Positions 1 through 64,000 of a stretch of 64,000 nt of DNA are shown one piece after another. The notes beneath the pieces are model-generated. The model made no database searches. It was not told the origin of the DNA and saw only the letters and a list, made by a program, of their open reading frames with translations. The position numbers and the translations under genes are program-made. Numbering within the stretch: position 1 is the stretch's first letter; the number at the start of each line of letters is the position of its first letter. Source of the DNA: Escherichia phage CMSTMSU; sequence record MH494197.1; one strand, written 5' to 3'.

Positions 1-478
1 TCAGCACCGAATTCTTCTTCCGCACCAACTTCAACTTCTTCGTCGTCAGAACCTAGGTCAACTTCATCACCACCGATTTCGTCAAACATTTGTTGTAGGC
101 CACGGAAAGCATCTTGAATAGATTCCCATTGGTCTTCGGAAGGAACTTCTGCACCAACTTCTGCTTCAGCGTCAACTTCTTCGCCATCAGCATCAGCAGA
201 GAATTCAACTTCTTCTTCTGCACTTTCATCTTCTTCACCTAGGGTGTATTCGATTTCAGCATTTAGACCAGCGTCTGGTTGAACATCAAAGTCTTCGTCA
301 AGTTTTTCTTCGTCTTTGACTTCAACTTCACATTCTTCTTCGTCCATGCTTTCTTCTAGTTCTTTATTGATTTCTTGAGCTTGCTCAACAAAGTACTTAC
401 GCATTTTTTATCAGCAACATCTTGTTCGCCGTTTGCAAACGCTTCAATTGCTTCTTGTAGTAGTTTTAAATTCGCCAT
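1..478 (-). CDS. Acidic Asp/Glu-rich protein; C-terminus lies beyond window start. Prohead core/scaffold-like by position downstream of portal.
   Basis: Minus-strand translation MANLKLLQEAIEAFANGEQDVADKK...EEEVEFSADADGEEVDAEAE; ATG at 478..476 preceded by GGAGGA; one frame break near 400-410 at a homopolymer run. Confidence 0.45.
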
Positions 479-595
479 TATATCCTCCATAGATATATTA
501 CATTCATATAAAGTATGATATTATTTAGTACTGAAAAATTTCGCCATTTTAAAAGCTTTAAAAGTGCGATTTTTGTTTACATTAATCCTGAACCA

Positions 596-802
596 TCACC
601 GGATGGTTGCTGCATAAACAACAGCGACAACATTTTTGCGTCGTTGTTCTTCATTAGCTTTAAATTCACGGTACTTTCTTAAATTATTAAGTACTTGTAA
701 TGTTAGTTTTGGTTTTCTGGAATCAGTAATTTTATATACGTTCTGATCATCTTCAGGGTCGTATAAAGAATCACTGCTAGATTCAAAGATGTCCTTTAAC
801 AT
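596..802 (-). CDS. Small hypothetical protein (68 aa), between portal and acidic protein
   Basis: Intact ORF in track; AAAGGAGA Shine-Dalgarno 5 nt upstream of ATG; TAAATA late-promoter-like core on minus strand at 867..872. Confidence 0.5.
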   Translation of the reverse strand: MLKDIFESSSDSLYDPEDDQNVYKITDSRKPKLTLQVLNNLRKYREFKANEEQRRKNVVAVVYAATIR

Positions 803-865
803 TTCATCTCCTTTGAATATGCATTATAATGAGGGCAACTAATGTACCCTCATTCTTATACATTG

Positions 866-2600
866 TTATTTATGATTAAAAGAATCGCCTAAATTATTCG
901 GGTTAAAACCTGCACTTCCTTGTTGTTCTTGGTATTCAGCATCGGCACTTTCTAAGTTACCGTCATCATCAATACCCAAATCCATACCGGGATCGTTAGG
1001 AGCATCTATACCAACAGATTGCAACCCAGCAGCATCTTCTTCACCACTTGACGGAGCGGAACCATCTTGTGGATTTTCTTGGAGCCACATTTGCTCATTC
1101 TTAACAATATCAGCTTTAGAAAGCCCATTTTTCAAGAATAGTTTGTTTTGCCATATATGGCAGATCGTTAAGTGGGAGATAGGTGTTAATTAGTTTAGCA
1201 TCTAGTTCCGCTTTACGATAAGCCAAGTTAATAGGTGGATTCATAATTACTTCAAAAGATGAAGTACTAATGTTATATCCATTTTAACCATAAAACGTTT
1301 AAATTCTGCATCAAATAGTTTTGCAACTAAACGTTGATAACGCATACATTGGTTATTAAAACGTAATTCACTTGCCATTGCTTGTGTTGCACCATCACCA
1401 AATAGTGATACACCACCATCATCTGGACCTTGCGGTAGATATGAAGCTGGGATTTGCAAACCACGAATCAATTTATTGTTGAAGTAACGCAAGTCATCAA
1501 TCTGACCTAAGTTATCACCACCGGAAGTGTTTGTACATCTGAACCACGACCTTCAGAAGTTTGTGGGAAGAAGTAATCTTCTAGAATACTTAATGGATTA
1601 TATGCTGCATCCATTAGAGAAGTACTGCCACCTTTATTTGAAGGAATACGTCTTTGGTGAATTTCATTTTTGAATCGTTCTACGTATGCCATTGCTTGGT
1701 GAGTTTGCATATCACCAACGTCAATTTTAAATACACGACGCTCTGGAGCACGTTGAACACGATAGATAATAATACTATCTTCAAGTAATTCTTTTGTTTA
1801 TAGACTTTGAAAACATCTTCAAGTATACTAGTACCAAAAGGCCAAACTCCATCTTGTCCTGTATTTAGGGTTAGATGAATTACATGTTCTGCACCAACTG
1901 GAATAACATCAAGACGACCGTTAGTACTGAATGGGTCAGCAGAGTTTCCTTGGTTAGTAAAGCCAGATGCACCACCTGCTGCCACTGAACCACCACCACC
2001 TAATGTGGTAGGGATTGCACCGGGTATGCAGTTTTATCAAATCCAACTTGTAAGTTACTAAACACTTTATCTTTAAGATTCAAAGATACGTCACGAATAT
2101 AATAAATTACAGGGTTTTTCCGGTTGCTTCGTTAACGAATACTTGTTCAACGTTTTTGGGCTTACCCAGTACCAGTCAAATGTTTCTGGGTCACGAATGA
2201 AGAATTGGTCACCATATTTTAATAGGCCACGTACAATTTCATACATTCTGGTTTTAAAATCATTTTGTTCAGTCCATGCATCCAAACGGTCTTCAATAGT
2301 AGTTACTTCTGTATCACCAATATCATCTTTATATTTGATTTTATATGGAAGACCAAAATCTTCAGTACTTTGTGTACAGAAGTCAGCAATGATATTAAGT
2401 GCTGTTCTAATTTCAGGATCTTGGTCCATCTGTTCATACTGACTATAACGTTCAGTACGGTTAGCTAAACCATTGTATACTACTGGAAGATAGGAAGCGA
2501 AATTTGTTTTCGTTCCTGTTGATTTGTTGCTATTACTGGACTGATTAGGGACGACCGATAACTTCGATCTCCCCATTGTCATATGTCGTTTCCAACTCAT
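866..2600 (-). CDS. Portal vertex protein (T4 gp20-like), interrupted by several frame breaks
   Basis: ORF fragments 2091..2600, 1680..1985, 1507..1710, 1247..1492, 866..1135 form one reading; segment ...LRFNNQCMRYQRLVAKLFDAEFKRF and ...EDYFFPQTSEGRGSDVQTLP resemble conserved T4 gp20 C-terminal region from memory; acidic C-terminus; SD AAGGACG before ATG at 2600. Confidence 0.8.
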
Positions 2601-2612
2601 TATTGTTCGTCC

Positions 2613-4789
2613 TTAACTGTTTCTCTCACCTTGGGTGTTTTCAGAGATAGTTCTTAGATAATTATTTGTCTGTTGTACAGCAGATAGTGATTGTTCATTA
2701 ACATCGGCAAGCTTTTTGAGTATTTCTTTCATTTCATCAGAAATCGGTGCTGGTGGTCCAGTTCTCGATGTCACTGCACTACCATTATTTATCATCTTCT
2801 TAATTGCCTCTGTATCGTCAGGTTTTGGTGGAACTGGTGGTTCACGGTGCCCATGCAGTTTTATCAAAATCTTTACGAGATACAGTTATTTCTGGAGCAA
2901 CGTTATTGGTTTTCAATAACAGGACGAATACGTTCTACTCGGACGGTTGAATAAACTGTCAGCATAATCAGATGGTAGTGGTTTTGGTTCTTTGTAGTTA
3001 CGTGAGGTGTTCCATTTGTTGAACTTATCCCACATCCCTGCAAAATAATCACTAACACTATTTACACCGTTGTCAATGATGTTGTTTACGCTTTCTGCTG
3101 GGGTTTCAGTACTGTTATTGAGTTTTATATCATTATCAGAACCACCACCGAACCAACTTTTAACAGAATTCCATAGGTTACCGGTAAATCCATTAAGTTA
3201 TTCATAAAGGTATCAAATGCTTCTGACACTTTAGAGTAACCTGAACCGAATATATCTGCACCCAATCCATCCAACCAAGCTGTAAATTCAGCACCAATAC
3301 GATCAAGGTAAGCAATTGCATCTTTAGCAATAGGTACTAACCCAAATCCATCAAGAGCCAATTCCCCAATAAACTCCCATGCACCATCAGTTCTGTCTGC
3401 AATGTCTGAAAGATAATCCACAATTGAATTTTGTGTATTAGCATACATTGTATTAAATGGTTCAGTGAATTCTTTACTAATCCACATATTGAAGCGGTTA
3501 GTAAATTGAGTTAATTTATCAGCGGGATTATTTTTAGGTTCATTTACGGTTGCTTCCATATCCAATAGTTGTTGGTAGAAGGTTGCAGCAGTTGTGTTTC
3601 CTAATTGAATCTGGTTAAGCAAATCTTGCTTAATTAATTCTTTATTCTTTTAACGAATTCTAATTGTTGGCGACGAATTTCTTGTGAATCAGTTACACCA
3701 CTACGTACAAGATTTTCACCTAAATCAGCGAACTGGTTCAGTACTGGAGTGAGTAGGTCATCCGGTACACCACCAATAGACAATCTGTGTGATATCAAAC
3801 GGAGGAAATCTGCACCTGCATCACCCATTGCACCCGCAGCTTCGTTGAACGCCTTAGATGTTGCTACAGCAGCTTTACTGGATAGTCCAGAGTAGTTCTG
3901 CAATGCAATTTGCATAGAACGCGTATCGAGTGATTTATCTAGGTTTTGTGTTTTGTTTAGTAATGCATCAACGGATTCACCCATGCTTTTACTGAATTTA
4001 GTCATGCTCATGATGAATTGTTCAGTACTTTTAGCTTGTCCATACTACGAAGAGCTTCACGACCACCATATTGTTTTGGAACTTAATGTTTCTTGCAGTT
4101 AAATCAGTTAATGTTTTTGAGAAATACCATAAAGGCCAAGTTCATTTTGAGCTTGTTGAACAGTTCCTAATAATTTACCAAAGGTAGCAACACCATCACC
4201 ATATGCCCCATCCAACTGAGCTACTACAGAACTATGTGTTTGTAGAGCTTCACTGAATCATCCATACTCAACATAGATGCACCTGCACCTTTCAGTACTG
4301 AACCATAACCTTCAGCCAATGCAACACCAGCACTGTTAATTCTGGTATATACTTCCAATTGTGCATTAAGTGCGTTATATACAGCAAGACCAGCACCAGT
4401 AACGAGTTTAAATGCTGCTGCCGCTGCACCAATTGGACGGCATCATTGCTAATGAACCAGCAAATGATGATGCACTAACGCCTAATGAGTTTACTACAGT
4501 ACTTACGTTCGTACTGGAGTTCATCATTGTTTTGCTTACATTGGAAACTTCAGAAGATAGTGATTTGAACAATTTACCAAATGCTTTCCCATCATCGGCT
4601 TGTGCACTTCCACGATTACTGGAAGAACTGGAACTGGAACCATTCTTTTTACCATTTGAACCTGATTTTTCTTATCATTCTTTATATTTTCAGCTAATAA
4701 CTCACGGATAGCAGTCAAACTATCATTGTTATCTTTAGTTTGATTAACCAACTGCTGTAGTAGGTAATCACTTGTATTGACAGCCATAA
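2613..4789 (-). CDS. Large Ser/Ala/Gly/Asn-rich virion protein (about 725 codons), heavily frame-broken; function unknown (internal or tape-measure/hub-like is speculation)
   Basis: Fragments 4536..4853, 3634..4011, 3125..3622, 2613..2867 plus sub-60-aa pieces read as one protein when frames are switched; AAAAGGGA SD before ATG at 4789; TAAATA core on minus strand at 4820..4825. Confidence 0.45.
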
Positions 4790-5787: not shown

Positions 5788-6028
5788 AGAAATACAAGAA
5801 GTACTGAAGGAATTTGAGTTGAATAAGTCAGATATTAAAACTGCATTAATGGAGTGTTCTGTTTATATGGAAAGTGTTGATTACGGAACACTACTTAATA
5901 TGCCACTAATTGATAGAGACTTATTAGTTAAGTCTTTTAATAAGAAAATTAAAAACAAAACGAGAAGCACTAACTCACAAGGAGCCAGCACATTGTTGCT
6001 GGTTTTTGGTTTTAAACTACAGAATTGA
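5765..6028 (+). CDS. Small hypothetical protein
   Basis: ORF 5741..6028 in track; start choice uncertain, overlaps end of preceding gene. Confidence 0.3.
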   Translation: MLLHSSPEEIQEVLKEFELNKSDIKTALMECSVYMESVDYGTLLNMPLIDRDLLVKSFNKKIKNKTRSTNSQGASTLLLVFGFKLQN

Positions 6029-7306: not shown

Positions 7307-9423
7307 TTAGAATACATCATCAAGAGTTGTATACTCAACAGTACTGAAACCATCCTCTTTAACTACTTTTAGGATTTTCTCAGTCTTAGAAAGCAATTCT
7401 TCTCTGTGAGAAATGGCATATACATTCTTACCACGCACAGCAGCCATATCTTGGAAGATAGACCACACGCGAAGAACACCACTTGAATCAAGACCTTGGT
7501 CAATCATCTCATCAATGATAAGAATATTGATACTTTGATACAATGACTCATATGTATCACGGAAAGCACAAGATAAAGCAATGTTTACCCTTGTACGCTC
7601 ACCACGACTAAGCTGTTTATAGTCAAAGTACTGACCACTTTTCTCAATTTCTACACTCAAATCATTCAAGAACACAACATTATGTTCAGAACCACACATA
7701 TCAATGTAATATTGAAGACGTGTATTCAGATACGAAATGTTTTGTTCAATAATACGCTTACGGACATAAGAATCCTTGTTTAACAACAATTTAACCAAGA
7801 AATCTTGGTGATTTGCCATCTTATCAAGGTTATTATAGTCACTATAGTCGATTGGTACTAATGAATCGGTCGTAAGTGTATTAATTTGTCCAATAAATGT
7901 GTTAGTAGTTTTCAATTCACGATCTAATTGCTGTGATAATGAAGTTACTGTCATTTCTAACTCTTTTACTTCAGATTTATTCAATGTATCTGGTACTTCT
8001 TGAAGAACATGTGCGTTCAGTTCTTCATATGATGACATAAGTTCATTAGCATAGATGTTAATTTGCTCTTCTTCACTCTTTTAATAAGTTCTTGAAGCTT
8101 ATGCTCATGCATTTGTGCTTCAGTTAGTGTAGAATAGAATGTCACAGGCTTAGGTGGCATATCAAAAATCTCAATACTATCAATTTCCTGAAGTATTGTT
8201 TCAATTTCAGAAGTGGAACTATCAATTTTCGATTGAAGTTCATTAATAGTATTTTGAATTTTATCTTTAATAGACGAAGTATGTTCATTATGTTCTAATT
8301 CGGACATACAAAGTGGACATTTACTACTCTCCACTGTTGCTAATTTGTCCACCTCAGCACGTAACGAACTCTCATGACCATTTAAAGCCACCTTTAATGC
8401 GTTAAGTTTTGTTCTTTGAAACGTTTTTGGTTATTATTCTCTTTTAGAATACCCTCCAACTGTTTCCATATCTCCAACTCATTGTGATTTTCTAATTCAG
8501 TACTGATATCAATAGTTTTTAGCTTATCAATACTTACATTTAATGCTAATTTTGCTGTTGCTAGTTCACGGTCATATGCATCATACTTCAAAGCTAACTC
8601 TTGCACACGTCTTTCTATTTGATCACGAGCAGCATTATGAATAAGAGCTTTCTCTTTCACTTCTGCCAAATCATAGAGATCGTTGAAGTCTAAAGTTTTG
8701 TAGATATTCAATTCTTCAGTCAACTTAGATACTCTATTATTTTTATCAATCTCAAATTGGTTAGCTTGTTCTTGTAATGATTCAATACTTTTTGAATACG
8801 TTCATTACTTGCAGCCACAGTTTCAATTTTGAACTTTTCTTGTTCAGCTAAACGTTTAGAATCTTTATACATATCCTTTAATAGTTCAGCTTTCTCTGTT
8901 AATTGTGTGATGCCCAGAAGTTCCTCAATCATATCACGTTGTTTCTGTGATGATAATGCAAGAAACGGCTCTACGTTAGCATTAAGTACTACAATATGTT
9001 CAAATAGTAGTTGAGAAATCCCAAGAATCTCGTTTAGATCTTCTTGTGTATCTTTCTTCTCCCCTCTTGACTCATCTTCGACCTTATTATCTTTACCTAA
9101 TGTAATAAAGTTGAAATACGTGGACTTCTCCCACGCTCGACGAGATATTGTACACCATCTTTCTCGAACTCAACAGATACTTCACAGTTTTAGCATTAGT
9201 TTTATTAACTAAGTTTGGAATTTTGATATCGTTACCAATACTTTTCCAAACAAACCAAAACTAAACCTTGAATGATGGCACTTTTACCAACACCATTACG
9301 GCGACCGGAACTATCACCACCTTCAATAACTGCATCATTGTTTTGACCAAGAACTAACGATATATCAGCACCAGACAAATCAATTACTTGTGGTGCATTG
9401 CCAAATGAAAAGAAGTTCCTCAT
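7307..9423 (-). CDS. Recombination nuclease ATPase subunit, SbcC/Rad50-like (T4 gp46-like), frame-broken
   Basis: N-terminal Walker A GRRNGVGKS (ORF 9232..9447); coiled-coil middle (8017..8932 fragments); C-terminal ABC signature LSRGERTRV, Walker B LIIDE, H-loop (ORF 7307..8038). Confidence 0.85.
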
Positions 9424-9459
9424 TGATATACGTGTAATGTTTAGCACAATAAATTTCCC

Positions 9460-10485
9460 TTATAGTGATCTGTAAATTTGGATTAGAAGATTTTTATCGA
9501 ACATAGGTGAATCAATTTCCATGATTTGTTGTAACACAATCTCATCAACTGACTCAGTACTTTCAAAGCTTTCACCATCTTCAATAAGTTCTTTGATACT
9601 TTGCTTGCTAGTAACAACGTTAAACTCACGAATGTTATAAAGTTTAGTAAAAGTATCACGAATAAAACTAATCTCATCAGTAGTGATAGCAATATCAACT
9701 TGAACCTTTGAAATAGTATTGTCTTGAAGATAATAACTTGGATCTGTTAATAGTTCTGAAAGTGTAAATGTTCTATATTTTGGTGCTTCTGACCAAGAAT
9801 GGAAAGTTGGTTCTTTACCATGTTCTAAAATCATCACACCTCTTGCATCATCCCATGTATCAGAAAAGTTATGTGGAAACAGTTACCTGTGTAAATTACA
9901 CGAGTTCCTTTGGATGTTGTTTTGCTTGTCTCTTGTGGAAATGCCCACTAAAAACATACTCACAACCACCAAAAGAACCTTCAGTCTCTTTACCATGATC
10001 TGGCATCTCAACCATTTTATTGAGCAAGTAGCGTAACTCTAAGTGACCAAAACATACTTACTTTTAAGTTGAGGTAGAACTTTGTATTCATCTTCAATCA
10101 TAAATGGAATGAAAGTACAATCATCAAATGTTGTGATTTCATTAATGAACTCGATGTTCTCATAAACTTGTGCCATATTAATACTAGTAATGTCACGTTT
10201 ATTTTTATGATACATGTCATGGTTCCCAACTAAGAAGTAAACCTTATCAAAGTTGTCATTTAGTAATTGTAGAATTTGTAAACCATAGTTTAATGTTTGA
10301 ATGTTAATATTACTGCGGTTATGGAAGTAATCTCCCATAAACACGCATACAGTAATACCATTTTTCTTAGCAAGTTCAATCATAAACTTGATGAAGTTCA
10401 AACAATCTTCGTTGTGCTGCTTGCTGTTATTCTTTAATCCTAAATGAATATCAGTAAATGTAATTGCTTTATCAAATAGAGCCAT
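9460..10485 (-). CDS. Recombination nuclease subunit, SbcD/Mre11-like phosphoesterase (T4 gp47-like), frame-broken
   Basis: Calcineurin-like motifs DIHLG, GDYFH, GNHD in ORF 10039..10503; C-terminal part in ORF 9460..9837. Confidence 0.85.
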
Positions 10486-12161: not shown

Positions 12162-12476
12162 ATGTCCAATTATAGTCAATACTCTCCTTATGCAAAGGTT
12201 AAACAAACGTGGTATCTTGGTTACAATTTACCACGTGATATGGTTCCTGCTGATACTGACGACTTCTATGTAATTCCATTGAAGTATGAGCATCAACCTT
12301 GGCGTTTAGCATACGAAATGTATGGTAATGAACGTCTGTATTATGTATTTGCCCTATTGAATCCTGATATATTAGGAGAAGACCCAATATACAATTTTAA
12401 TAGTGGTATCACAATTCGTGTTCCCTCAAATCAACGAGTGCAAAACTATTTGAACGGTACTCGTAACATAGGTTAA
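12162..12476 (+). CDS. Baseplate wedge protein, gp53-like (LysM-like fold)
   Basis: YVIPLKYEHQPWRLAYEMYGNERLYYVFALLNPDI resembles gp53 pattern Y.I...P..LA...YGN..LY.V.L..N; intact ORF. Confidence 0.5.
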   Translation: MSNYSQYSPYAKVKQTWYLGYNLPRDMVPADTDDFYVIPLKYEHQPWRLAYEMYGNERLYYVFALLNPDILGEDPIYNFNSGITIRVPSNQRVQNYLNGTRNIG

Positions 12477-14740: not shown

Positions 14741-16255
14741 ATGGCAGATACAAGTAAGAAATATGCCCAACAACAGTTGGGTCGTTTTGACCCTTCGTAT
14801 CCACAACTAGCAACCGTGATGGATAACCGTGACCCAACTAAATCCGGTAAGCTAAAAGTGTGGATTCAAGGTTCACAAAGTGATAAAAATTCAAAAGAGT
14901 CATGGATTGAAGCATCATACATGTCTCCATTCGCTGGTAAAACTCGGGATACCAAGTGCTGATGCTTATGGTCAATATCCAAAGGGATATGGTTTTGGGC
15001 AGTTCCACCTGATGTCGGATGTACTGTTGTTGTTATATTTGCACAAGCAAGAACATTCCAAGCGTATTGGATTGGTTGTGTTTATGACCAACGTATGAAT
15101 ACGATGGTTCCGGATGGCTACTGAAATAAGCAATTATGCAGGTACTGATATGCCATTACCCGTAACTGATTATGACCGTAATACAATTTCTACCAGTACT
15201 CAAGACAAATATGCAAACGTTCCAATTATTGCAGGTCTGAAAAACAAAACTTACTTTATGATGAGGAAGCGGGTGTTGCTAACCGTAGCAGTACTCGCCA
15301 AACTACCAGTACTGTTTATGGTCTTTCCTCACCTCGTGGTAACAGTTTTATTATTGATGATGGTTACACAGAAGAAGAATTAACAGCACCTACATGGGAT
15401 CAAGATCCAGATGGTTATCAGGATACCCAATTCAATAACCCAGTGAACGATACTCGTGTTGGTTCTCGTAAAAATGAAGGCGTTGTAATTAAAACACGTA
15501 GTGGTGCACAGTTGTTGTTATCTGAAGCCTCTGGTGATGTTCTTTTAATTAACCGTGATGGTACTGCACGTATTAAATTCACTGGTGAAGGTGACATTGA
15601 AATGCACTGTGATAAGAATATTAACATTCGTGCAGGACAAGATATTAACATGGTTGCGGGTCGCTCATATAATATTGAAAGTGGAGCAGACTTCAATGCT
15701 CGTGTTGGTGCAAACACTAAACTAGATTTGGTTGGTGCATTGGATGCTAAAGTTGGTGGTCAGGTTGTTATTAACGCTGGAGCAGATTTACGTTTAGTAA
15801 CAGCAGCTTCATTACGTATGCAAAGTGGTAGCAGTACTGATATAACTGCTGGTTCTAATGCGTCAATCTCTGCTGCTACCAGTGCTAATCTTATTGGTTC
15901 TTCATCAGCTATTATTAGTGGTGGTGGTCAAACCCTTACTGTTAACAGTGGTGGTAATAGTGGTACTGCTGAATTTAATGCACCAAACTTCCGCACCCCA
16001 TCTGCTGGCTTGAATGATCATATACATGATATATCGGCTTGGGTTGATGCAGAGAATCACGGCAGTACTGTTGAACCTCCACGTCAAGGTGGTGGTAGTG
16101 GGAATAGTGAATCCCCAGTTCAACCCGAACCTGCTAATGATGTAGCTCCAACTTTAGCTCCAGTACAGGACACTGAAGCAATTCAATATGTAAATTATAC
16201 AACAGAAACAGAACAAGTTCAAACACAAGATTTAATGACTTCTGATCCGGCATGA
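14741..16255 (+). CDS. Baseplate central spike protein, gp5-like: N-terminal OB-fold plus C-terminal beta-helix; no lysozyme domain inside
   Basis: YGFWAVPPDVGCTVVVIFA OB-fold-like segment (frame-joined 14741..15098); long Gly/Ser/Ala/Thr beta-helix-like repeats in ORF 15443..16255. Confidence 0.6.
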
Positions 16256-16620
16256 CTGGTTATAGCATTACGTATGAAGGTCTTCATATGTTCATGCCGT
16301 GTAGTGGAACCATTCGCCAATACGGTTATTGGGGAAAGGTGTCCCGACTAGTGGTGGTGGTAAAGCTGATAGAAGTGGCTGGGAAATACAGTGCAAGGGT
16401 GATGTTGTAGCTCCAGATGGCGGTGTAGTTGTTATCACTAATGGTGCTTTATTGGTTCAACATAAGTCTGGATATAAATCTGTATTTTATAATATTCAAT
16501 CAGATTTGCTCAATAAAGACGTTGTTCAAAAGGTCAAGTTATCGGGAAAGCAAATGGTGTTATACAATTTGAAATACGAGTAACTTCTGCCAACGTACTA
16601 GGATTTAGTGGTTCTGTTGA
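16252..16620 (+). CDS. Degenerate LytM/M23-peptidase-like domain (possibly N-terminal part of the following lysozyme-domain protein)
   Basis: APDGGVVVITNGALLVQHKSGYKSVFYNIQ...ANGVIQFEIR resembles M23 fold ending HLHFEIR, but His ligands replaced; two frame breaks. Confidence 0.3.
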
Positions 16621-23563: not shown

Positions 23564-23571
23564 ATAATTCT

Positions 23572-26150: not shown

Positions 26151-26159
26151 TTCGTTTGA

Positions 26160-30035: not shown

Positions 30036-30039
30036 TTAA

Positions 30040-44164: not shown

Positions 44165-44196
44165 TCCAGACTGCGTTCCATCGAGTCTGGATTTTT
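44165..44196 (+). terminator. Rho-independent terminator
   Basis: ATCCAGACT-loop-AGTCTGGAT hairpin followed by TTTTTAT. Confidence 0.6.
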
Positions 44197-47200: not shown

Positions 47201-49201
47201 TCTTAATATTGCAAAAATACTGCAATCACTGGTGATTTAGCTGTATCTGGCACACTAACTGCTGGTTCAATCGACCTAAGCAATACTGATGTAACCGTTA
47301 AATCTCTTGATTCACTAGGTAACGCACACATTGCTGGTGACCTAACTGTAGATGGTGCATTCGACTTAAGTGCAACTAACCTTGTAGCTGCAAGTCTAGC
47401 AAGTACTGGTTCTACTACTGTTGGAACTGATCTAGTACTAACAACTGGTGTTGTGACTGGTAGCCCAGCTATCTCTGGTAATACAACAATCGGTGGAACT
47501 CTTGGTGTAACTGGTGCTGTTAACCTAACTGATATTGTTAATATCGGTAAGAAAGTAACAGTGAGTACTGGTGGTATTCAGGTAGTTGATGGTGGTATCA
47601 ATACTAACACAATTAACGTTTCTGGTGCTTCTACTCTAGCAGGAACTTCCATTACTGGAACTTTAGGTGTAACTGGTGCTTCTACTCTAGCAGGTGTATC
47701 TGCGACATCACTAACAGTTTCTGGTGACAGTACTGTTCAGAAACTAACTGTCCAAGGTGAATTGATCCCACAAGGTGGTCTTGACCTAAGCGGTGCAGAC
47801 ATTACTGCTAATAGTCTAACTACTGCAACAACTATCAATGCAACTGGCCTAAGTACTCTAAGTGGTGGTGTTAGTACTTCTACTGTGACTGCATCTGGTC
47901 TAGCAACTGTTGGAAGTTTAACTTCTACTGCAAACGCATCAGTTGGTGGCAATTTGGGTGTAACTGGAACTCTAGATGTTACTGGTGCTACTACTGTATC
48001 TTCACTAACAGCTACTGGTGCAGTGAAAACTGGCACAACCCTAACTGTTGGTACTCCAGTTGGTGAACAACCTGAAACTGTACAGATCATTCCAGATACT
48101 TATATTGCTGGTAAATTGCGTGTAATCGGCGGTATTAACGCTGAAATCGACGTAAGTGGTCAAACACTAGAACCATATGCAATTGAAGCTGCTGCAACAC
48201 TATCTGCTGTTGGTAACATTACTTCTGGTGCAACCATCGTTTCTAAAGCTGCAACAATTGGTGATGTTGGTTCACAAAACAACAACCTAACTGTTAATGG
48301 TAACGTAGTAACTAATGGTGACTTCACCGTTACTGGTGTACTAAATGCACAATTGAACCAAGCAGATTCCGATGTAGCTGTTAAATCTTTAACTGCAACT
48401 AATAACGTTGCGGCTGGTACTTCAATCACTGCTGGAACATCCATCACTGCATCAGGCTTACTAAAAGGTAATTCGTTAGAAGTCACCACTACTGGTTCAT
48501 TTGGTGGTGCAGTAACTATGTCAAGTGGTGCAAACATCACTGGTACTGTTGGTATCACTGCTGGTGACCTAACAGTAGGTGGTAATATCTCTGCAACTGG
48601 GACTGCTGGATTCGGTGCAACAACCGTTTCTACCATTACAACATCAGGTTTAGCTACACTTGCAAGTGCATCTGTAACTGGTGCTCTAACTGTAGGTGGT
48701 ACATTAACTGCAAATGGTAACACTGTGATTGGTGATGCTGCTGCTGATACTTTAACTGTAAATGCAACATCGACATTTAAAGAGAACGCAACATTTGATA
48801 AGAACCTAACAGTGACTGGTTCTATTAACACCACCACTGCAAACTTCACCACAAACAACATGGTAACTAAGAAATATTCTGTTATCCCTGCTAGTGTTAC
48901 TGCTTCTACTGCTGCTGTAGGTGGTACTTGGACACCAGATGGTACTACTAACGTATATCGCTTAACTCTTGACCAAAGTGTTACAATGGATTCCATCGCG
49001 GGTCTAATTGGTAGTGGTCAAGCATGTTCAGTGTATATCTATGTAACTCCATCTGTTGCTGATACTACTTTCACCTTCGGTGGTGCATACTCTGTAGTTT
49101 CTGGTACAGTAAGTGCTGTAGTTGGTCAAACAAGTATTATCCAAGTAATCTATGATGGTTTCAGTACTGTGTTTGATACCTTCGTTGCACAACGTGTATA
49201 A
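44272..49201 (+). CDS. Giant repetitive fiber protein A (about 1640 codons), Thr/Gly/Val/Ala/Ser-rich, frame-broken
   Basis: ORFs 44272..45546, 45781..46740, 46884..47240, 47453..49201 chain; GGAGGGA SD; starts MYSIKTDLD; ends ...VIYDGFSTVFDTFVAQRV. Confidence 0.6.
45781..46140 (+). repeat. Segment of fiber A nearly identical at nucleotide level to 50701..51130 in fiber B
   Basis: GTGAGTGGACAAGATCTAACTCCTAAATCAGTAGTTGCTGCTGAAGCAATCAAAGGTCAAAC... present in both genes. Confidence 0.7.
48040..49201 (+). repeat. C-terminal module of fiber A, paralogous to 53860..55050 of fiber B
   Basis: Long near-identical runs, e.g. CCTGAAACTGTACAGAT...TTCACAAAACAACAACCTAA...CATCACTGGTAC. Confidence 0.65.
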
Positions 49202-49220
49202 CATTTTAAATTAATAATTA

Positions 49221-49250
49221 AAGCCAACTAAAATAGTTGGCTTTTTCTTT
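49221..49250 (+). terminator. Rho-independent terminator
   Basis: AAGCCAACTA-AAAT-AGTTGGCTT followed by TTTTCTTT. Confidence 0.65.
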
Positions 49251-49347
49251 GTATTAGATAATAGTGTTTTGTGAATTAAACTAAATATAAGTATATTAAC
49301 AAAAGATGGGTTATGAATATATAGTTCATCGTTATAGGAGGGACTCT

Positions 49348-52300
49348 ATGTACTCGATTAAAACGGATCTTGATGTATCTGGTAATTCCACGGTAGGTAA
49401 GGATCTTTTGGTCAAAGGTAATGCAGTATTCAGTAATGACCTAACGGTTAATGGGGAAGTGTCTTTTGCTAACGCAGTATTCACTGCAATTACCGCTGGT
49501 TCTGTGAATGTCACAGGTGCATTGGATGTTGCTGGTAAGGCAACCTTATCCGGTGGTGCTGATGTTTCAGGTGCTGCGACATTTGCAGGAAACATTACTG
49601 CTGCTGACGGCACAACTGCAAAATTTGATAACTTAGAAGCTAATTCAGGATCATTTAATTCTGTTGAATCAACTGATATTACTTCAACTGGCACAGCAAC
49701 TTTTAAAGATGTAAACATTTCTGGTACACTTGGTGGTACTTTTAATCTTTCTGATATTAATGCTACAACACTTAATGTGTCTGGTGCTTCAGCACTAACT
49801 GGTTCAGTCACATTGGGTGCAAATATCACTGGTCTTGCAAGTACTGCAAACTTCCGTGATATTCGTATCGGGCCTAATGAAGAAGGTCAAGCATATAGAC
49901 TAAACTTTGGTTACACCGTTCGGACAACGACCAACCGTTCTTCTACAGAACGAAGTTCAATCCGAACTAATGTCTCCTGCTAAGTTGAATGTTCTACAAA
50001 CTGCAACATTTGGTGATTCTTCACTTTCAACTTACGGTATTACAGGTAATGGTTTAAACAAATTAGATTATGTAACTATTTCTGGTAACGCAATTCAATC
50101 ACCAACCACTCCTTTACTTGAAGTAACTAAAGGTAAAACTAAAGTTGTTGATTTAGAAGTGACTGGCGTAGCAACTATTCCTAATATCGAAAGTTCTGGT
50201 ACTGCAAACTTTAACAACATCAACGTATCTGGTACTATTGGTGGTAGTTTTGATTTAGATGATATCCAAGCAACAACATTATCAGTATCCGGTGCTTCAG
50301 CACTAACTGGTGCAGTTACATTGGGTGCAAACATCACTGGTCTAGCAAGTACTGCAACATTCAAAGCAATCAATTTGGGTCAAAATACCGCTGATGCTAA
50401 CGTTAAGCTAGGTTTTGCATATACTGCACCTAGTGCACGTCCAACAGTCTTGTTAGCAAACGAAGTTCAATCTGAACTAATGTCTCCTGCTAAGTTGAAC
50501 GTTCTACAAACTGCAACCTTCGGTTCTGCTGCACTATCTACCTATGGTATTACTGGTAATGGTCTAAACAAATTAGATTATCTAACAATTACTGGTAACG
50601 CAACACAAAACCCTGCTACTCCACAACTTCAAGTTGGTGGTAAAGCAATTCTTAATGATGTTGAATTTACAGGTACTGTAACTGGCCTAACTGTTGATGT
50701 GAGTGGACAAGATCTAACTCCTAAATCAGTAGTTGCTGCTGAAGCAATCAAAGGTCAAACTCTTGAATCAGTTGGTCAAACAACTGTAGGTTCATCTCTA
50801 CAAGTTGGTGGTACTGCAACTGTTACTGGTGCATTATCTGCTGCCGCTGGTACTTTCAGTGGTGATGTTAGTGGTTCTAAAGGTATCTTCAGTGATAGCG
50901 TATCCGGTACAAGTGCAACCTTTACTGGGGATGTTAGCGGTGATAACGCAACCTTTAGTGGCGATTTATCTGCTGTAGCTGGCACTTTCAGTGGTGATGT
51001 AACCGTAACTGGTCAAACAATCACTGTTAAAGACTTGGTAGTAACTGGAACTTCAACTGGTGTAACTGCAATCGCTGACGTTGACGGTCTTGATATTGCT
51101 CCAAACAAAGTTGATGTTACAACAACTCTATCTGTTGCTGGTGAATCAACTCTTGCTGGTGTTACAGCAACTTCAATCAATAGTACTGGTGCAATTGCAG
51201 GTACTGCAATTTCTGGCTCTACTATTACAGCAACTGGTGAAATTTCTGGTGCATCATCTGTAGTAACTGGTCTTTCTAAATCTGGTAGCGTTGAAACTGG
51301 TGCTCTAAAGGCATCTTCTGTTGAAACTGCAATCATTAGCAACACTGCTGGTGTGTCAATAACAAACAACACTTCAATTGCAGGTAATCTATCTGTAACT
51401 GGAACTGTTACCCCGTGCAATTGACCTAAGTACTACTGATATTGATGCTAAGTCTCTAACAACTACTGAAGGTGCTAACATTGGTGGTGACCTAGTTGTT
51501 GCAGGTACAGTTGATCTAAGTGCTGCTGACGTTGCTGTTAAATCTCTAACCAGTACTGGTGCAGTTATTAGTTCTGAAGGTACAGTAAGTAGTGTTCTAC
51601 CTAAACTTTCCAGTACTGAAGCTAATATTACCACAGTAACTGCAACCACTGCAAATGCTACCACACTAAATGTAACTGGTACATCAACTCTAGCTGGTGT
51701 TAACGCTTCTGGTGCTATTACTTCTGCAACTAACATTACCGCTACTGGTGTATTAAAGGTGCATCTGTTGAAACTGCGTCAATCAGCAATGCTGATGGTG
51801 TAGCAATTAACAATAACACTACAATCACTGGTAATTTGGACGTATCTGGGACATTGACCCGTGCAATTGACCTAAGTACTACTGATATTAGTTCTAAGTC
51901 TCTAACCACAACTGAAGGTGCTACAATTGGTGGCGATCTTGTGGTAGCAGGTACTGTTGATCTAAGTGCTGCTGATGTGTCGGTGAAATCTCTTGCAAGT
52001 GCAGAGACAATTACAAGTGCTGGTGTTATTACAGTTTCGGATACAGTGAATTCTAGCACTCTACCAAAACTAATTACTACTGATGCAACTATTGGTGCTG
52101 TCCATGCAGCTACTATTGAAACAACTGGTTCAAGTACACTAAAACAAGTATCTGCTACTGAAGTAACAGCTACAAGTATTGTACTAAATTCAGTTGGTGA
52201 AGGTTTACGTGTTGACAATAATGCAAACATTAATGGTATATTAAGTGTTAATAATATTACTTCTACCAATGATACTATTGCAATTGCGAAAAGTGCTGCT

Positions 52301-55050
52301 ATTACTGGTGATCTGACCGTATCTGGAACTGTTACCCCGGTGCAATTGACCTAAGTACTACCGATATTAGTTCTAAATCCTAAGTACTACTGAAGGTGCT
52401 ACAATTGGTGGTGACCTAGTTGTTAATGGTTCAATTGATTTAAGTTCTTCCAATGTTTCAGCAATTACCCTTGCTAGTTCTGGTAATACTACCGTTGGTG
52501 GTAACCTAGTACTAACAACTGGTGTTGTGACTGGCAGCCCATCTGTATCTGGTAACCTTTCAGTTGCAGGTACTGCGGCAGTAACTGGTGCAACTACCTA
52601 ACTGATATCGTAAATATCGGTAAGAAAGTAACTGTAAGCACTGGTGGTATTCAAGTAGTTGCAGGTGGTATTAATACCGACGCTATATTAGTATCCGGTG
52701 ATACAACTTTAAACAACACTACTGTAAACACTACCTTAAATGTAACTGGTCAAAGTACAGTTGCTGCACTAAGTGCTGCATCTTTGAATGTATCTGGTGA
52801 TAGTACTGTTCAAAACTAACAGTTGAAGGTGAATTGGTTCCACAAGGTGGTATCGACCTAACTGGTGCAGATATTTCTGCTAATAGTCTTGCAACTGCTT
52901 CAACAATCACTGCAACTGGACTAAGCACACTAAGTGGTGGTGTAAGTACTACTAATGTTACTGCATCTGGTACAGTGAATGCTGGTAGTTTGGATGTTAC
53001 TAACAACGCAACCGTTGGTGGTAATTTGGGTGTAACTGGTTCATTAACTTCTGGACCATTGAGTGTAACAGGCATTGCGAATATTACTGGTGTAACAACT
53101 GTTGGTTCATTGGTTTCCGGTGCTGTATCTGGTAGTACTGGTACATTTAGTTCAACATTAGGTGTAACTGGTGCAGCTACATTTGACAATGACGTAACTG
53201 TTGAAGGTGTATTCACCCCAGCAGGTGGTTTAGACCTAACAACTTCTGATATTACAGCTAAGAGTTTGTCAGTATCTGAAACTATTCACTCTGATGGTGC
53301 AGCTTCCTTTGGTGGTAACACAACAGTAGGTGGTACATTGGGTGTAACTGGTGCAGTAACTGCTCCATCGGCAACCCTAAGCGGTACTGGTACTGCACTA
53401 GCAGTAACTAATAATGCAACTATTGGTGGTACATTGGGTGTAACTGGTCAAGCAACACTTGGTTCTATAGTAACTTCTGGTGTATCTGCAACAAGTGGCT
53501 CTTTCAGTACTACTCTTGGCGTTACTGGTGCTGCGACATTTGGAAACGATGTAACTGTAGTTGGAACACTAACTCCGGTAGCTTAGATCTAACTGGTGCA
53601 GATATCTCTGCTAAAACACTAACTCTATCTGAAACATTAAATGCGACAGGTAATACTACCCTTGGTGGAACATTAGGTGTAACTGGTTTAGCAACAATTG
53701 GTGGAACACTAACGTCTGGTGCAGTAACTGCTCCATCTGCAACCTTGAATGGTTCAGGAACTGGTCTAGCAGTAACTAACAACGCAACCGTTGGTGGTAC
53801 ATTAGGTGTAGTTGGTCAAACAACACTAGGTTCTGTTAAAACTGGTGCAACTCTAACAGTTGGTACACCATTAGGTGAGCAGCCTGAAACTGTACAGATT
53901 ATGCCAGACACTTATATTGCTGGTAAACTACGTGTTGAGGGTGGTATTAACGCAGATATCGATGTTGGTGGACAAACACTAGAACCGTTTGCAGTAATAG
54001 CATCTGATTCTTTATCTTCTGCTGGTAATATTACTGCTGGTGCGGCAATTATTTCAAGTTCTGCAACAATTGGTGAAGTCGGTTCACAAAACAACAACCT
54101 AATCGTTAATGGTAACGTTGTAAACAACGGTAACTTCACTGTTACTGGTGTACTAAATGCACAATTGAACCAAGCAGATTCCGATGTAGCTGTTAAGTCT
54201 TTGACTGCAACTAACAACGTAGCTGCTGGAACCACATTAAGTGCAGGTACTGCAATTACTGCTGGTACTTCCATCACTGCAACTGGATTACTTAAAGGTA
54301 ATACTTTATTACTACTACTGGTTCATTTGGTGGTGCAGTAACTATGTCAAGTGGTGCAAACATCACTGGTACAGTGGGTATTACTGCTGGTAACCTAACA
54401 GTGGGTGGTGATATCTCTGCAACTGGCACTGCTGGATTCGGTGCAACAACCGTTTCTACAATTACAACATCAGGTTTGGCTACACTTGCAAGTACATCCG
54501 TTACTGGTAACGCAACAGTAGGTGGAACACTAGCAGTAACAGGAGCACTAACTGCGAATGGTAACGTAACATTAGGTGACGCAGCGGCTGACGTTCTAAC
54601 CGTTAATGCAACTTCATCATTTAAAGAAAATGCTGTGTTTGATAAGGCAGTAACAGTAACTGGTGAACTAACCACTACTAATGCTAACTTAACTACTACA
54701 ACAGTAACTACCAAAAGTATGATGTAATCCCAACTCAAGTTACATCATCAGTAATTGCTCCAACCGGAACATGGACTCCAGATGGTACAAGTAACGTGTA
54801 CTTCATCACTCTAGACCAAGATACCACGTTGGCTCCAATTACTGGCCTAATTGGTGGCGGTAAAGCTGCATCAGTATACATCTATGTTAAACAAGATACA
54901 ACTGGTAACAGAAACTTTACAACTGATGGTACTTATGCTGTTGTTGATGGTGAACTAAACAAAACTGCTGGTAGCGTGACCATTTACCAAGTAATTTATG
55001 ATGGTGTAAGTCCAGTTACTGATTTGTTCATTGCACAACGTACTGCTTAA
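49348..55050 (+). CDS. Giant repetitive fiber protein B (about 1900 codons), paralog of fiber A, frame-broken
   Basis: ORFs 49306..49983, 49907..51424, 51836..52354, 52834..53586, 53745..54341, 54344..54727, 54796..55050 chain; AGGAGGGA SD; starts MYSIKTDLD; ends ...VIYDGVSPVTDLFIAQRTA. Confidence 0.6.
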
Positions 55051-55114: not shown

Positions 55115-55891
55115 ATGTTTACATATGTAAAAGGTAGTTCTAAAGAAAATTATGAATTGGGTAACATCATCTCCAACCCAGTTGGTGTTAAGGGTTTAAA
55201 AGAACGCCGGGCAACTCCAGATGATGAACAAACATATCGTTATTTGTACAGTGATATTCGTGCACTTTATGGTATTTCAAGTAAAGATGGTTCTGAAATT
55301 GAACCTAATAACGCTGTTCGCAAAGAAGAGGGTTTCTGGTGGTTGGAATATAAGAATGTTGGTAATGTGAACGCAATTAATGAGAATTTGGAATATATTA
55401 AACTACAAGATAGTAATCAACCAGTCATCACATTCTTAGAAGAAGCAGAAGGTGAATATAAAGAGTTAACAGTACTGAAAACTTATAATTATGTTGATAT
55501 GGACATTGCAGCAGTTAAATCTGATCTGAAAGCACGCACAGTATCATCTCGTAGTGATCGTATTAATGCTGGTTATATGTTTAACGGTCATCGTTATAGT
55601 ACTGATCTAGCTGGTCGTCAAATGCTTCTTAATTATTATACACAAGTAACTTCCGGTTCAGATAGCGTTTCGATTTTCCTTGATGACGCAATTGTAAAAC
55701 TATCTGCTGCTGAAATGACTCAACTATACACTGAAGCATTTGCTATGGTTGAATCCCTATTTGCAGAGTGTAATAAGCAATGTGCTGACATTGATGCAGT
55801 TCCTGATGCTGATGAAGATGCAATTTATAAAGCACAACAGGCGGCTGTATGGGTATATGAAGGTATTGATATTCCTGAGCGTACTCGTTAA
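55115..55891 (+). CDS. Hypothetical protein, 258 aa, intact; possible fiber assembly/accessory protein by position
   Basis: Uninterrupted ORF between fiber genes; functional call is positional only. Confidence 0.5.
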   Translation: MFTYVKGSSKENYELGNIISNPVGVKGLKERRATPDDEQTYRYLYSDIRALYGISSKDGSEIEPNNAVRKEEGFWWLEYKNVGNVNAINENLEYIKLQDSNQPVITFLEEAEGEYKELTVLKTYNYVDMDIAAVKSDLKARTVSSRSDRINAGYMFNGHRYSTDLAGRQMLLNYYTQVTSGSDSVSIFLDDAIVKLSAAEMTQLYTEAFAMVESLFAECNKQCADIDAVPDADEDAIYKAQQAAVWVYEGIDIPERTR

Positions 55892-57971: not shown

Positions 57972-58899
57972 TTATACAGCCATTGGTGCTTTGATCGTTG
58001 GCATTGGATCGTAATTAACTAATTTGAAAGAATCCATAGTGAAATCTTCAATATCAGTAATAGTAGGATCTAACCATAATTCTGGTAATGTACGTGGTTC
58101 ACGTTGGAGTTGCTCTTTTACTTGTTCAATATGGTTTTGATAGATATGGCAGTCGCCACCATTCCAAATAAATTCACCAACATCTAACCCTGTAATTTGT
58201 GCAATCATATGAGTTAGTAGTGAGTAACTACTAATATTAAATGGCACACCAAGGAATAGATCAGCACTACGTTGATGAAGAATACAACTTAGTTTACCCT
58301 GTACAACACAAAACTGCACAAAGCTATGACAGGGTGGCAAAGTCATAGCATCAAGCTCACCAACGTTCCATGCACTTAGAATGTGACGACGACCATATGG
58401 ATCAGTATTGATACCTTCAATAACTTGTTTTAGCTGGTCAGTTACGACGCATAATAACACCATGTGAACCAGTATAATCAATAACTTTATACCCTTTATC
58501 TTTTAGTTCTTGAATTTCTTCAGTACTGGAACTGAATTTATAATCTTCCCATTCACGCCATTGTTTACCATAAACTGGGCCAAGCTCACCATCAGAATAC
58601 CCAAGGCTTACACCTTGATTAAGGTAGTTGTCTGTCCAAATTGTTTTCTTTTCTACATCACGTGTCCCGTGTAAAATTTCACACAGACGACGCTCATCGT
58701 GAGAACCTTCAATAAACCATAACAATTCTGAAGTCATTGCTTTCCAAGCTAAACGTTTAGTAGTTACTGCTGGGAAACCTTCTTTTAGGTCAAAACGCAT
58801 TTGTTGTCCGATTAGCTTGATAGTGCCAACACCAGTACGATCAACGCTTTCGACACCTTGATCCAGAATTCTTTGATATAGTTCTTGTAGTTGTTTCAT
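57972..58899 (-). CDS. td: Thymidylate synthase (ThyA/td), one frame break, no intron evident
   Basis: N-terminal half in ORF 58438..58962 ([31 protein letters not shown]), C-terminal half in 57972..58481 with active-site LPPCH; halves overlap at 58438..58481. Confidence 0.9.
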
Positions 58900-59390: not shown

Positions 59391-59403
59391 GCATAGATAG
59401 AAA

Positions 59404-60143: not shown

Positions 60144-60146
60144 TAT

Positions 60147-63455: not shown

Positions 63456-63483
63456 ATTATATCACATCGTTCAGGCTTGTCAA
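63456..63483 (-). promoter_or_regulatory. Strong sigma70-type promoter (TTGACA-16 nt-TATAAT, TGn extended -10), minus strand
   Basis: Minus-strand TTGACAAGCCTGAACGATGTGATATAAT. Confidence 0.6.
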
Positions 63484-63546
63484 CAACTTTTTTATTTCTT
63501 TTCAATCTCACATCTTGTGATTTTGAAAACTTGCTTCGTGGTGGTC

Positions 63547-63574
63547 ATTATAACACATCATTCGGCGTTGTCAA
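63547..63574 (-). promoter_or_regulatory. Second tandem sigma70-type promoter (TTGACA-16 nt-TATAAT), minus strand
   Basis: Minus-strand TTGACAACGCCGAATGATGTGTTATAAT; about 90 bp direct repeat of 63456..63483 unit. Confidence 0.6.
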
Positions 63575-63597
63575 CATCTTTTTCTTTATTTTCGAAG

Positions 63598-63974
63598 CTA
63601 CATGTGCATCGAAAATAACATTCTAAAATCATCACCACACAATGTTAACTCTGTAACTATCATTTGCGTCGAGAGGTATATGTACTGCCCTTCTACATAG
63701 TAGGGTGAAGTACATATCCTATCAAGCGATGTAAAGATTATAGAACTTTTGAACTCTCTTTGCAAGGGGATTTTTGTAAATTCGTAAAGAATGTTTTCTT
63801 TACAAATTGTATATCCAAACTTGCTAAGTCTTAAACCACCGCCAGTTCTGAAATTTTCAAAATTGACATCAGAAGCATACGGTCTGTTAATTCAGCGTCT
63901 GATCCATGTACTTCTCTAACTTTTAAAAGTACATCGTTTTGAAATTCAGTACTGTTGTGTGGTTCAGGAATCAT
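63598..63974 (-). CDS. Hypothetical small protein at window edge (frame-broken)
   Basis: MIPEPHNSTEFQNDVLLKVREVHGSDAELTDRML...; weak SD; one frame break. Confidence 0.3.
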
Positions 63975-64000
63975 AAATTACATCCCCACGAAACCCTGTC

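Follow-up and report, generated by a model that had tools for sequence, protein, structure and literature searches.

A 64-kb stretch of the genome record of Escherichia phage CMSTMSU (MH494197.1), whose 64,000 nucleotides we refer to as the window, raises the question of why almost none of its genes can be read through in one frame. The initial annotation had attributed these interruptions to systematic indel errors and had offered a degraded, prophage-like element as the refuting alternative. Our comparison of the window with related phages indicates that the broken genes are almost certainly sequencing errors, of a kind that characterizes unpolished nanopore data, rather than the result of gene decay.

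The closest relatives of the window are the Asteriusvirus-like jumbo E. coli phages EC.P1, Ecwhy_1 and WPEC5, isolated lytic phages with ~99% identity to the window and intact genes. Positions 163085-227369 of the EC.P1 record are collinear with the whole window from end to end, and a nucleotide alignment of the two gives 98.99% identity, with 360 mismatches and 227 gap openings. Across the EC.P1 group (EC.P1, Ecwhy_1, WPEC5, fEgEco12 and TH47), identity to the window ranges from 98.7 to 99.3%; none of the phage records searched matches it completely, and even the best, at 99.3%, shows indel differences. Ecwhy_1 (98.7%) and TH47 (~98%) are both filed under Asteriusvirus, and 121Q and PBECO4 are more distant Asteriusvirus relatives with ~81% identity; the genomes of the relatives measure 352-384 kb. 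We took the gene map from EC.P1 and the gene names from Ecwhy_1 and WPEC5, and checked the identities with Pfam. A tRNA scan of the window found none. The phage behind the window is a real strain in its own right, and an ordinary member of this known group of Asteriusvirus-like jumbo E. coli phages.

Counted against EC.P1, the window contains 227 indel events, 226 of them deletions and a single one an insertion, and 220 of these events shift the reading frame; the same deletion bias is seen against Ecwhy_1 and WPEC5. At least one frameshifting indel is present in 37 of the 39 genes of the EC.P1 map, and the frame is kept in only two, which encode products of 104 and 259 aa (Table 1). The initial annotation had listed the portal, the gp46- and gp47-like nuclease, the ClpA-like protein, thymidylate synthase, the lysozyme and the large structural genes as interrupted, and this holds for every one of them. 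No open stretch of the giant virion gene exceeds ~750 aa in the sequence as given. Three good references, which differ from each other by the same substitution divergence, differ mutually by 5-17 indels, whereas 227-232 separate each of them from the window. The indels among these references are multiples of three or lie at a stop codon when within genes, and those that would alter a frame are intergenic. Natural variation at this divergence is therefore far below the indel load of the window. By simple arithmetic from the indel and substitution counts, ~300 erroneous bases in 64.3 kb correspond to roughly Q23. A few indels of the window are probably real, including a difference of one 9-nt repeat unit at 4607, in frame within the 732-aa structural gene, an AAG difference at 1219 and intergenic runs (for example at 6002, ~37.8 kb and ~58.2 kb) that also vary among the references.

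Table 1. Features of the window and their lesions relative to the related phages (coordinates are those of the window).
Feature	Coordinates	Strand	Observation
Whole window	1..64000		Structural/morphogenesis and DNA-metabolism block; 226 private deletions and 1 insertion vs EC.P1
T run named in the initial annotation	403..409		T7 in references, T6 in window
Portal (Portal_T4; 578 aa in relatives)	876..2600	-	9 frameshifting deletions; Pfam
732-aa structural protein gene	2613..4787	-	11 frameshifting deletions
Intergenic T run	6002..6007		T8 in EC.P1, T5 in window
gp46-like SbcC-type recombination nuclease subunit	7307..9447	-	7 frameshifts; Pfam
gp47-like SbcD nuclease (Metallophos)	9460..10485	-	5 frameshifts; Pfam
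Example error cluster	10028..10050		Reference TATCCAGGTAAC to window TAGCGTAAC, Dcm site lost; 16 bases on, A5 to A4
104-aa structural protein gene	12162..12476	+	No indel, frame kept
Baseplate hub / tail lysozyme (887 aa)	14741..17393	+	8 frameshifts; Pfam
Small phage lysozyme (162 aa)	17431..17914	+	5 frameshifts; Pfam
Baseplate wedge, Baseplate_J-like (1153 aa)	18422..21872	+	10 frameshifts
Giant virion protein (3323 aa in relatives)	21951..31907	+	15 frameshifts
ClpA/ClpB-like double-AAA ATPase (762 aa)	31939..34216	-	10 frameshifts; Pfam
Long tail fibre gene 1 (1644 aa)	44272..49201	+	4 frameshifts
Long tail fibre gene 2 (1906 aa)	49348..55050	+	10 frameshifts
259-aa gene	55115..55891	+	Frame kept; 3-nt in-frame loss at CCCTGG Dcm site, 55208
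Thymidylate synthase (309 aa)	57972..58899	-	Cut into two pieces by one 2-nt deletion (AC) at 58443; Pfam

The deletions depend strongly on run length. For single bases of the reference, the probability of having suffered a deletion is 0.06%; it reaches 3.8% for runs of four, 47% for runs of five and 93% for runs of six, and is 80% and 100% for runs of seven and eight. Compression sets in from ~5 bases in A/T runs and from ~3-4 bases in G/C runs, the latter being deleted in 5.8% of cases at length 3 and 25% at length 4. This class comprises 143 events, and the window has 10 runs of at least six bases vs 57-58 in the relatives. The initial annotation had suspected that the frame breaks gather at homopolymers, and counting them bears this out: 142 of the 220 frameshifts occur in reference homopolymers of at least four bases, which make up ~5% of the sequence. 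Its example at 400-410 is likewise a shortened run (Table 1). The T runs that it had noted as breaks in both fibre leaders are a different matter, since these are the T tracts of terminators, at 44191 and 49247, that precede the start codons; they are intergenic and hence break no frame. The first break in each fibre gene is instead a Dcm site, at 45514 in gene 1 (reference CCCCTGG to CCCGG) and at 49921 in gene 2 (reference CCAGG to CGG). Among the good references the intergenic run at 6002 spans T8 to T11, so that its true length in the window is not inferable.

The Dcm motif CCWGG defines another class of error. Relative to EC.P1, 42 of 44 CCWGG sites (95%) are corrupted, whereas other motifs are nearly untouched, with changes in 1 of 101 GATC, 0 of 131 CTAG, 2 of 143 CATG and 4 of 211 ACWGG sites. 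The window consequently contains no CCWGG at all, where shuffled sequences lead one to expect 50.4 +/- 5.9 and the relatives carry 44-48. Outside both the homopolymer and the Dcm classes are 28 events (25 frameshifting), which we term background deletions. We also considered losses of GGG to GG, several of which occur in GTGGGA, as a possible second methylation motif. Only 6 of 30 GTGGGA sites are affected, and G/C runs simply need to be less long than A/T runs for compression to occur; on these grounds the idea was dropped. The CCWGG class, the shortening of G/C runs of three and four bases and the near-exclusive direction of the events toward deletion had all been missed in the initial annotation.

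None of the 226 deletion alleles occurs in Ecwhy_1, WPEC5 or TH47, and at 187 deletion sites three references agree with each other against the window. An exact 42-mer covering three of the errors gave no hit in IMG/VR. Substitutions behave differently from indels, as 162 of the 360 are common to other phages. Those private to the window comprise 110 synonymous (84%), 20 non-synonymous and 0 nonsense changes, which indicates that purifying selection acted on intact frames. When the indels alone were reverted and the substitutions of the window kept, 38 of 38 complete ORFs were restored. Two records among the relatives were examined as possible exceptions. TH47, an UNVERIFIED and unannotated record, was considered as a sibling sharing the errors; its indels vs EC.P1 are few and balanced in direction, most of them being +1/-1 pairs produced by the alignment where the sequences diverge, and TH47 is free of the artefact seen in the window. 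The gp46-like gene of Ecwhy_1, annotated as a misc_feature, was considered as a natural pseudogene; it has no internal stops, only an unusual first codon, and because it translates through it sets no precedent for real decay.

These observations allow the readings that accept the sequence as it stands to be weighed. Were it accurate, the window would represent a jumbo phage, or a defective derivative of one, with ~220 frameshifts, no CCWGG and all long homopolymers shortened, implying either an unprecedented mechanism of recoding or slippage across the whole genome, or an element whose degradation was very recent and very peculiar; we regard this as highly improbable. The more specific proposal, that the window belongs to a phage or prophage remnant that is decaying and no longer functional, with pseudogenes in place of genes, would account for the interruption of 37 of 39 genes in the sequence as given, and we consider it equally improbable. 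A search with a 10-kb query gave no hit among 5,426 complete E. coli genomes, and the nearest relatives are isolated lytic phages with intact genes. Natural decay would be expected neither to produce 226 deletions vs 1 insertion nor to remove 93% of 6-mers and 95% of CCWGG while sparing GATC and CTAG. The absence of nonsense changes and the 84% share of synonymous private substitutions likewise stand against 220 frameshifts, and the relatives share no lesion with the window. A further proposal, in which the phage gets around real frame breaks by slippage during transcription or by programmed ribosomal frameshifting at A/T runs, draws on the many breaks in such runs, a type of site where slippage can happen. 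Yet the relatives, at 99% identity, have the same proteins in one frame with the run one base longer, about one-third of the breaks lie outside runs of at least four bases (at Dcm sites, G/C triplets and isolated bases), and up to 15 breaks per gene would leave a negligible yield of full-length protein. As no break is conserved in the relatives either, this is the least credible of all the readings, with next to no chance of being correct.

Sequencing error could also have arisen on another platform prone to homopolymer errors, such as Ion Torrent, 454 or low-coverage PacBio CLR. Flow-based chemistries also under-call homopolymers with a deletion bias, and the homopolymer class, taken by itself, fits several platforms equally. 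However, flow-based platforms use amplified, unmethylated templates and PacBio base-calling is undisturbed by 5mC, so that these platforms fail to explain the corruption of 42 of 44 CCWGG sites next to clean control motifs. Near-deterministic compression of all runs of at least six bases in a consensus is typical of R9 nanopore data. The pairing of Dcm and homopolymer errors is, moreover, what Wick et al. (PMC6591954) describe for ONT. Another platform is thus very unlikely, if somewhat less so than an accurate sequence.

We conclude that the sequence is, with high probability, an unpolished long-read consensus of a genuine phage strain, most likely obtained by Oxford Nanopore sequencing of native, methylated DNA. 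That the errors lie in the sequence and not in the biology, as first proposed, is supported by the direction of the deletions, their dependence on run length, the Dcm motif, the privacy of the alleles, the selection signature and the restoration of the ORFs upon repair. The Dcm class takes the account a step further, since it points to nanopore sequencing of native DNA as the likely platform; the error spectrum is our sole basis for naming the platform, and the absence of polishing is likewise inferred. The DNA would have been sequenced natively, with its methylation, and read by an older, methylation-unaware base-caller. Under-calling of homopolymers would be the first systematic error in the conversion of signal to bases, and 5-methylcytosine at CCWGG would distort the current signal such that CCGG, CGG or CCG is called in place of the motif. 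Together, these two processes would account for nearly all frame breaks and a thin background of isolated single-base deletions for the remainder, while the genes of the phage itself would be intact. An observation that runs against nanopore sequencing is that GATC (Dam) sites are unaffected, which requires either a base-caller able to cope with 6mA or unmethylated GATC.

The finding is correct but ordinary, a matter of quality control rather than biology. Taken at face value, the window would lead to the false conclusion that ~95% of its genes are pseudogenes, would contribute a proteome of ~200 truncated proteins that pollutes protein databases, and would display a complete avoidance of CCWGG that might be misread as a way of escaping restriction or methylation. 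The sequence needs polishing or correction before it is annotated, and neither homopolymer lengths nor Dcm-site content should be taken from the record as given. Comparing the counts of CCWGG and of runs of at least six bases with expectation offers a rapid way to flag this artefact without a reference. The error footprint may also have a small use of its own, as an accidental readout of methylation at the time of sequencing: it provides indirect evidence that the packaged phage DNA was Dcm-methylated at essentially every CCWGG and not otherwise hypermodified.

In its gene order and T4-like hallmark genes, the window matches other Asteriusvirus-like jumbo phages, from which it is set apart as a separate strain by 131 private, mostly synonymous substitutions; among the Asteriusvirus-like sequences compared, the systematic deletions are confined to the window. 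It resembles decaying prophages and reducing genomes in its many interrupted frames. Unlike them, it shows no nonsense substitutions, relaxed selection or shared lesions, has one insertion among 227 indels, and bears its lesions only at sites that are hard for sequencing technology to read. The closest likeness is to R9-era ONT assemblies of native enterobacterial DNA. Wick, Judd and Holt (2019; PMC6591954) reported ONT consensus accuracy of ~Q22 with the final Albacore version, with errors in Dcm motifs first and in homopolymer lengths next, and the window shares the CCAGG/CCTGG and homopolymer classes, the deletion bias and a quality of ~Q22-23 with that profile, whose platform is documented whereas that of the window is inferred. 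In their Klebsiella data ~70% of errors fell in Dcm motifs, whereas homopolymer errors outnumber Dcm errors in the window, because the phage is AT-rich (~37% GC) and has only 44 CCWGG sites in 64 kb. Homopolymer indels also cause frameshifts in R9.4.1 assemblies (Sereika et al. 2022; PMC9262707), and correction tools for gene fragmentation in long-read-only assemblies include Kastor (PMC12007338). Compared with such fragmented assemblies (PMC9262707), the frameshift density of the window is extreme, and one frameshift per ~290 bases, with 95% of genes broken, suggests that no polishing was applied at all.

The frame breaks that pervade the CMSTMSU window are almost certainly a sequencing and assembly artefact, as the initial annotation proposed, and not a biological feature. 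In a megablast search of a phage collection, the window was collinear with jumbo phages of E. coli (352-384 kb), at 98.9-99.3% identity to EC.P1, fEgEco12, WPEC5, WPEC3, Ecwhy_1, Turkey3, vB_Ec-M-J, BF17 and TH47 (databases file Ecwhy_1 and TH47 under Asteriusvirus) and at about 81% to 121Q and PBECO4. The entire window aligned in a single piece to EC.P1 163085-227369 (64,000 versus 64,285 bases; 360 mismatches, 227 gap openings, 287 gap columns). The matching stretch of EC.P1, Ecwhy_1 and WPEC5 carries 39 intact genes, including those for the portal, gp46/gp47-like nucleases, a gp55-like sigma factor, baseplate and lysozyme proteins, a 3323-aa virion protein, a ClpA-like ATPase, two long tail fibres and thymidylate synthase, and Pfam matches of intact homologues (Portal_T4, AAA_23, Metallophos, AAA_2/ClpB_D2-small, Thymidylat_synt, Phage_lysozyme) confirmed the key identities. 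When EC.P1 genes were mapped onto the window and frameshifting indels tallied per gene, 37 of 39 contained at least one, so the pervasive breaks in essential genes described in the initial annotation are real; the longest stop-free stretch was 777 aa, compared with 3336 aa in the relatives.

This load far exceeds natural variation. Pairwise, these three good references differ by 389-479 substitutions but by just 5-17 indels; comparisons of the window with each of them gave 360-503 substitutions and 227-232 indels. Relative to EC.P1, 188 indel events are intragenic and 97% of all events (220 of 227) break the frame. Among the good references, in-gene indels have lengths divisible by three (GGT, an 18-mer, TTC, AAC) or lie at a stop codon, and frame-altering indels are length changes in intergenic A/T runs.

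Window features, frameshifting indels per gene, indel events per context class and shortened reference runs (context classes and run lengths from the EC.P1 sequence)
Feature	Window position	Count or description
Portal		9 frameshifting indels
732-aa structural protein		11 frameshifting indels
gp46-like nuclease		7 frameshifting indels
gp47-like nuclease		5 frameshifting indels
Sigma factor		8 frameshifting indels
Hub/lysozyme		8 frameshifting indels
Small lysozyme		5 frameshifting indels
Baseplate wedge		10 frameshifting indels
Giant virion protein		15 frameshifting indels
ClpA-like ATPase		10 frameshifting indels
Colanic-acid-degrading protein		12 frameshifting indels
Tail fibre 1	44272..49201 (+)	4 frameshifting indels
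Tail fibre 2	49348..55050 (+)	10 frameshifting indels
Thymidylate synthase		1 frameshifting indel
Homopolymers of 5 or more		123 events, 120 being A/T
Homopolymers of 4		20 events
Within 4 nt of CCWGG		37 events
G/C triplets		18 events
Elsewhere		28 events
Insertion		1 event
Run length 1		22/34,260 shortened (0.06%)
Run length 2		9/9,988 shortened (0.09%)
Run length 3		18/2,270 shortened (0.8%)
Run length 4		20/531 shortened (3.8%)
Run length 5		72/153 shortened (47%)
Run length 6		41/44 shortened (93%)
Run length 7		8/10 shortened (80%)
Run length 8		2/2 shortened (100%)
GGG read as GG	9121, 9874, 19468, 22632, 34025, 35701, 38336, 57297, others	mostly preceding A (GGGA/TCCC)
Corrupted CCWGG, examples	1522, 2021, 2845, 2940, 3182, 4438, 10030	
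Intergenic A/T runs	~4880, ~6002, ~37800, ~56140, ~58190	6-11 bases, varying among well-assembled relatives
Terminator hairpins with T tracts	44165-44196 and 49220-49250	5' of the fibre start codons
Fibre paralogue pair	44755-45978 vs 49672-50894	
Fibre paralogue pair	48007-48703 vs 53819-54529	
Fibre paralogue pair	46774-47967 vs 51867-53039	

The indel spectrum is one-sided. Relative to EC.P1, the window has lost bases in 226 of 227 events. Single-base losses account for 184 deletions, two-base losses for 33 and three-base losses for 6; 4, 5 and 9 bases are missing once each, and the sole insertion is 1 nt. Of the 220 frameshifting events, 142 (~65%) fall in runs of at least four bases, which cover just about 5% of the reference; ~15% are at Dcm sites (CCWGG), ~8% at G/C triplets and ~11% elsewhere. 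The initial annotation was correct that breaks often coincide with A/T homopolymers (its example at 400-410 is a reference T7 read as T6 at 403), but it overlooked the Dcm class and omitted the G/C triplets. G/C runs fail at smaller lengths: shortening affects 5.8% of those of length 3 (0.1% for A/T triplets) and 25% of those of length 4. The recurrent loss of one base from GGG looks like a k-mer-dependent base-calling bias; a strict motif was ruled out, just 6 of 30 GTGGGA sites being affected.

Of the 44 CCWGG sites that EC.P1 has across the alignment, 39 are hit by a deletion in the window; with private mismatches included, the number affected rises to 42 (95%). The usual misreading is CCGG, CGG or CCG. 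Control motifs were affected far less often: GATC 1/101, CTAG 0/131, CATG 2/143, GTAC 7/389, ACWGG 4/211 and TCWGG 6/147. With nearly all sites corrupted, CCWGG is absent from the entire window, against 50.4 +/- 5.9 expected from shuffles and 44-48 in the matching stretch of relatives; this absence is an error footprint, though it could be mistaken for motif avoidance. The pattern implies phage DNA carrying Dcm methylation at almost all CCWGG sites when sequenced, with no other hypermodification, and hence a dcm+ host. GATC, which is read correctly, is neutral as to Dam methylation.

In both tail fibre genes, the first in-gene break falls where a Dcm site has been lost (45514 and 49921). The T5 runs that had been singled out in both fibre leaders are the T tracts of strong terminator hairpins just 5' of the fibre genes. 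One is indeed a shortened run (T6 to T5, 44191) and TTTT beside the other has become TTT (49247), but neither of these intergenic changes disturbs a reading frame. AT-rich, promoter-like sequence follows each terminator, an arrangement suggesting that each gene is its own transcription unit. The two adjacent genes are paralogues, with several segments at 73-84% identity, and these shared segments are natural recombination substrates. Relative to the window, TH47 (MT446416.1) lacks ~5 kb corresponding to 48703-53819, between 83%-identical repeats of the two genes, and thus appears to carry a single chimeric fibre gene; this may be a true recombination product or a collapse during assembly, the record being UNVERIFIED and unannotated.

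Some differences are likely genuine. The 131 window-private, mostly synonymous substitutions are probably real and mark a distinct strain, as probably is the in-frame AAG loss at 1219. At 4607, the window is one copy short of the 9-nt tandem unit TTCCACGAT compared with EC.P1, an in-frame difference that probably reflects repeat-number variation and not error. Natural homopolymer-length polymorphism was seen nowhere but in the variable intergenic A/T runs; some window run lengths there are possibly real, and reference-based correction at these sites is therefore unsafe. At the megablast level, 3534-4260, within the 732-aa structural protein gene, aligns to EC.P1 and Ecwhy_1 but not WPEC5 or TH47, marking a locally variable region among phages otherwise 99% identical. 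In Ecwhy_1, the gp46-like gene (7835-9979 of its stretch, L003) translates without internal stops and is only a misc_feature in the UNVERIFIED record; its unusual first codon is probably why a CDS call is missing.

The breaks could alternatively belong to a degraded prophage-like element, yet the evidence contradicts this reading, raised in the initial annotation as the alternative to indel errors. A 10-kb query from the window had no match among 5,426 complete E. coli genomes, and the window's lesions, all in one direction, are limited to technically difficult sites. They are also private: when the local 24-nt context of each event was looked up in Ecwhy_1, WPEC5 and TH47, none of the 226 deletion contexts was present, and around 187 deletion sites EC.P1, Ecwhy_1 and WPEC5 are identical. 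By comparison, 162 of the 360 substitution alleles are common to another phage, as expected of real polymorphism. Selection on the window's genes is not relaxed, since a lineage tolerating 220 frameshifts would not keep third-position-only change without stops: private substitutions comprise 110 synonymous, 20 non-synonymous, 1 intergenic and 0 nonsense changes, the same profile as shared ones (135 synonymous, 23 non-synonymous). Reverting the indels alone, with all window substitutions retained, gave back a full-length ORF free of interruptions for each of the 38 complete genes, which likewise supports errors over pseudogenes. Programmed slippage bypassing the breaks is contradicted as well, given that relatives at 99% identity have single-frame genes and a third of breaks lie outside runs of at least four bases.

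As to the source of the errors, a different homopolymer-prone platform would account for the run errors but leave the CCWGG class unexplained; Ion Torrent and 454 read amplified templates and are incapable of methylation-motif errors. Because of this, and of the combined Dcm and homopolymer signature, we infer nanopore sequencing of native DNA without effective polishing. Pseudogenes, truncated proteins, CCWGG absence and homopolymer lengths should accordingly not be read off the window sequence. The published Oxford Nanopore consensus signature of native enterobacterial DNA read with base-calling models untrained on Dcm methylation has three components, all present here: homopolymer compression by deletion only, near-total corruption of CCWGG (the 5-methylcytosine motif), and accuracy at the remaining bases. 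Wick et al. 2019 (PMC6591954) divided consensus errors between Dcm motifs (CCAGG or CCTGG), homopolymers and a remainder, with Dcm motifs dominating, followed by homopolymer lengths, and Sereika et al. 2022 (PMC9262707) reported that R9.4.1 assemblies carry the resulting frameshifts and need short-read polishing. Here, ~300 wrong bases in 64.3 kb correspond to roughly Q23, and the consensus from the last Albacore version was ~Q22 (Wick et al. 2019).
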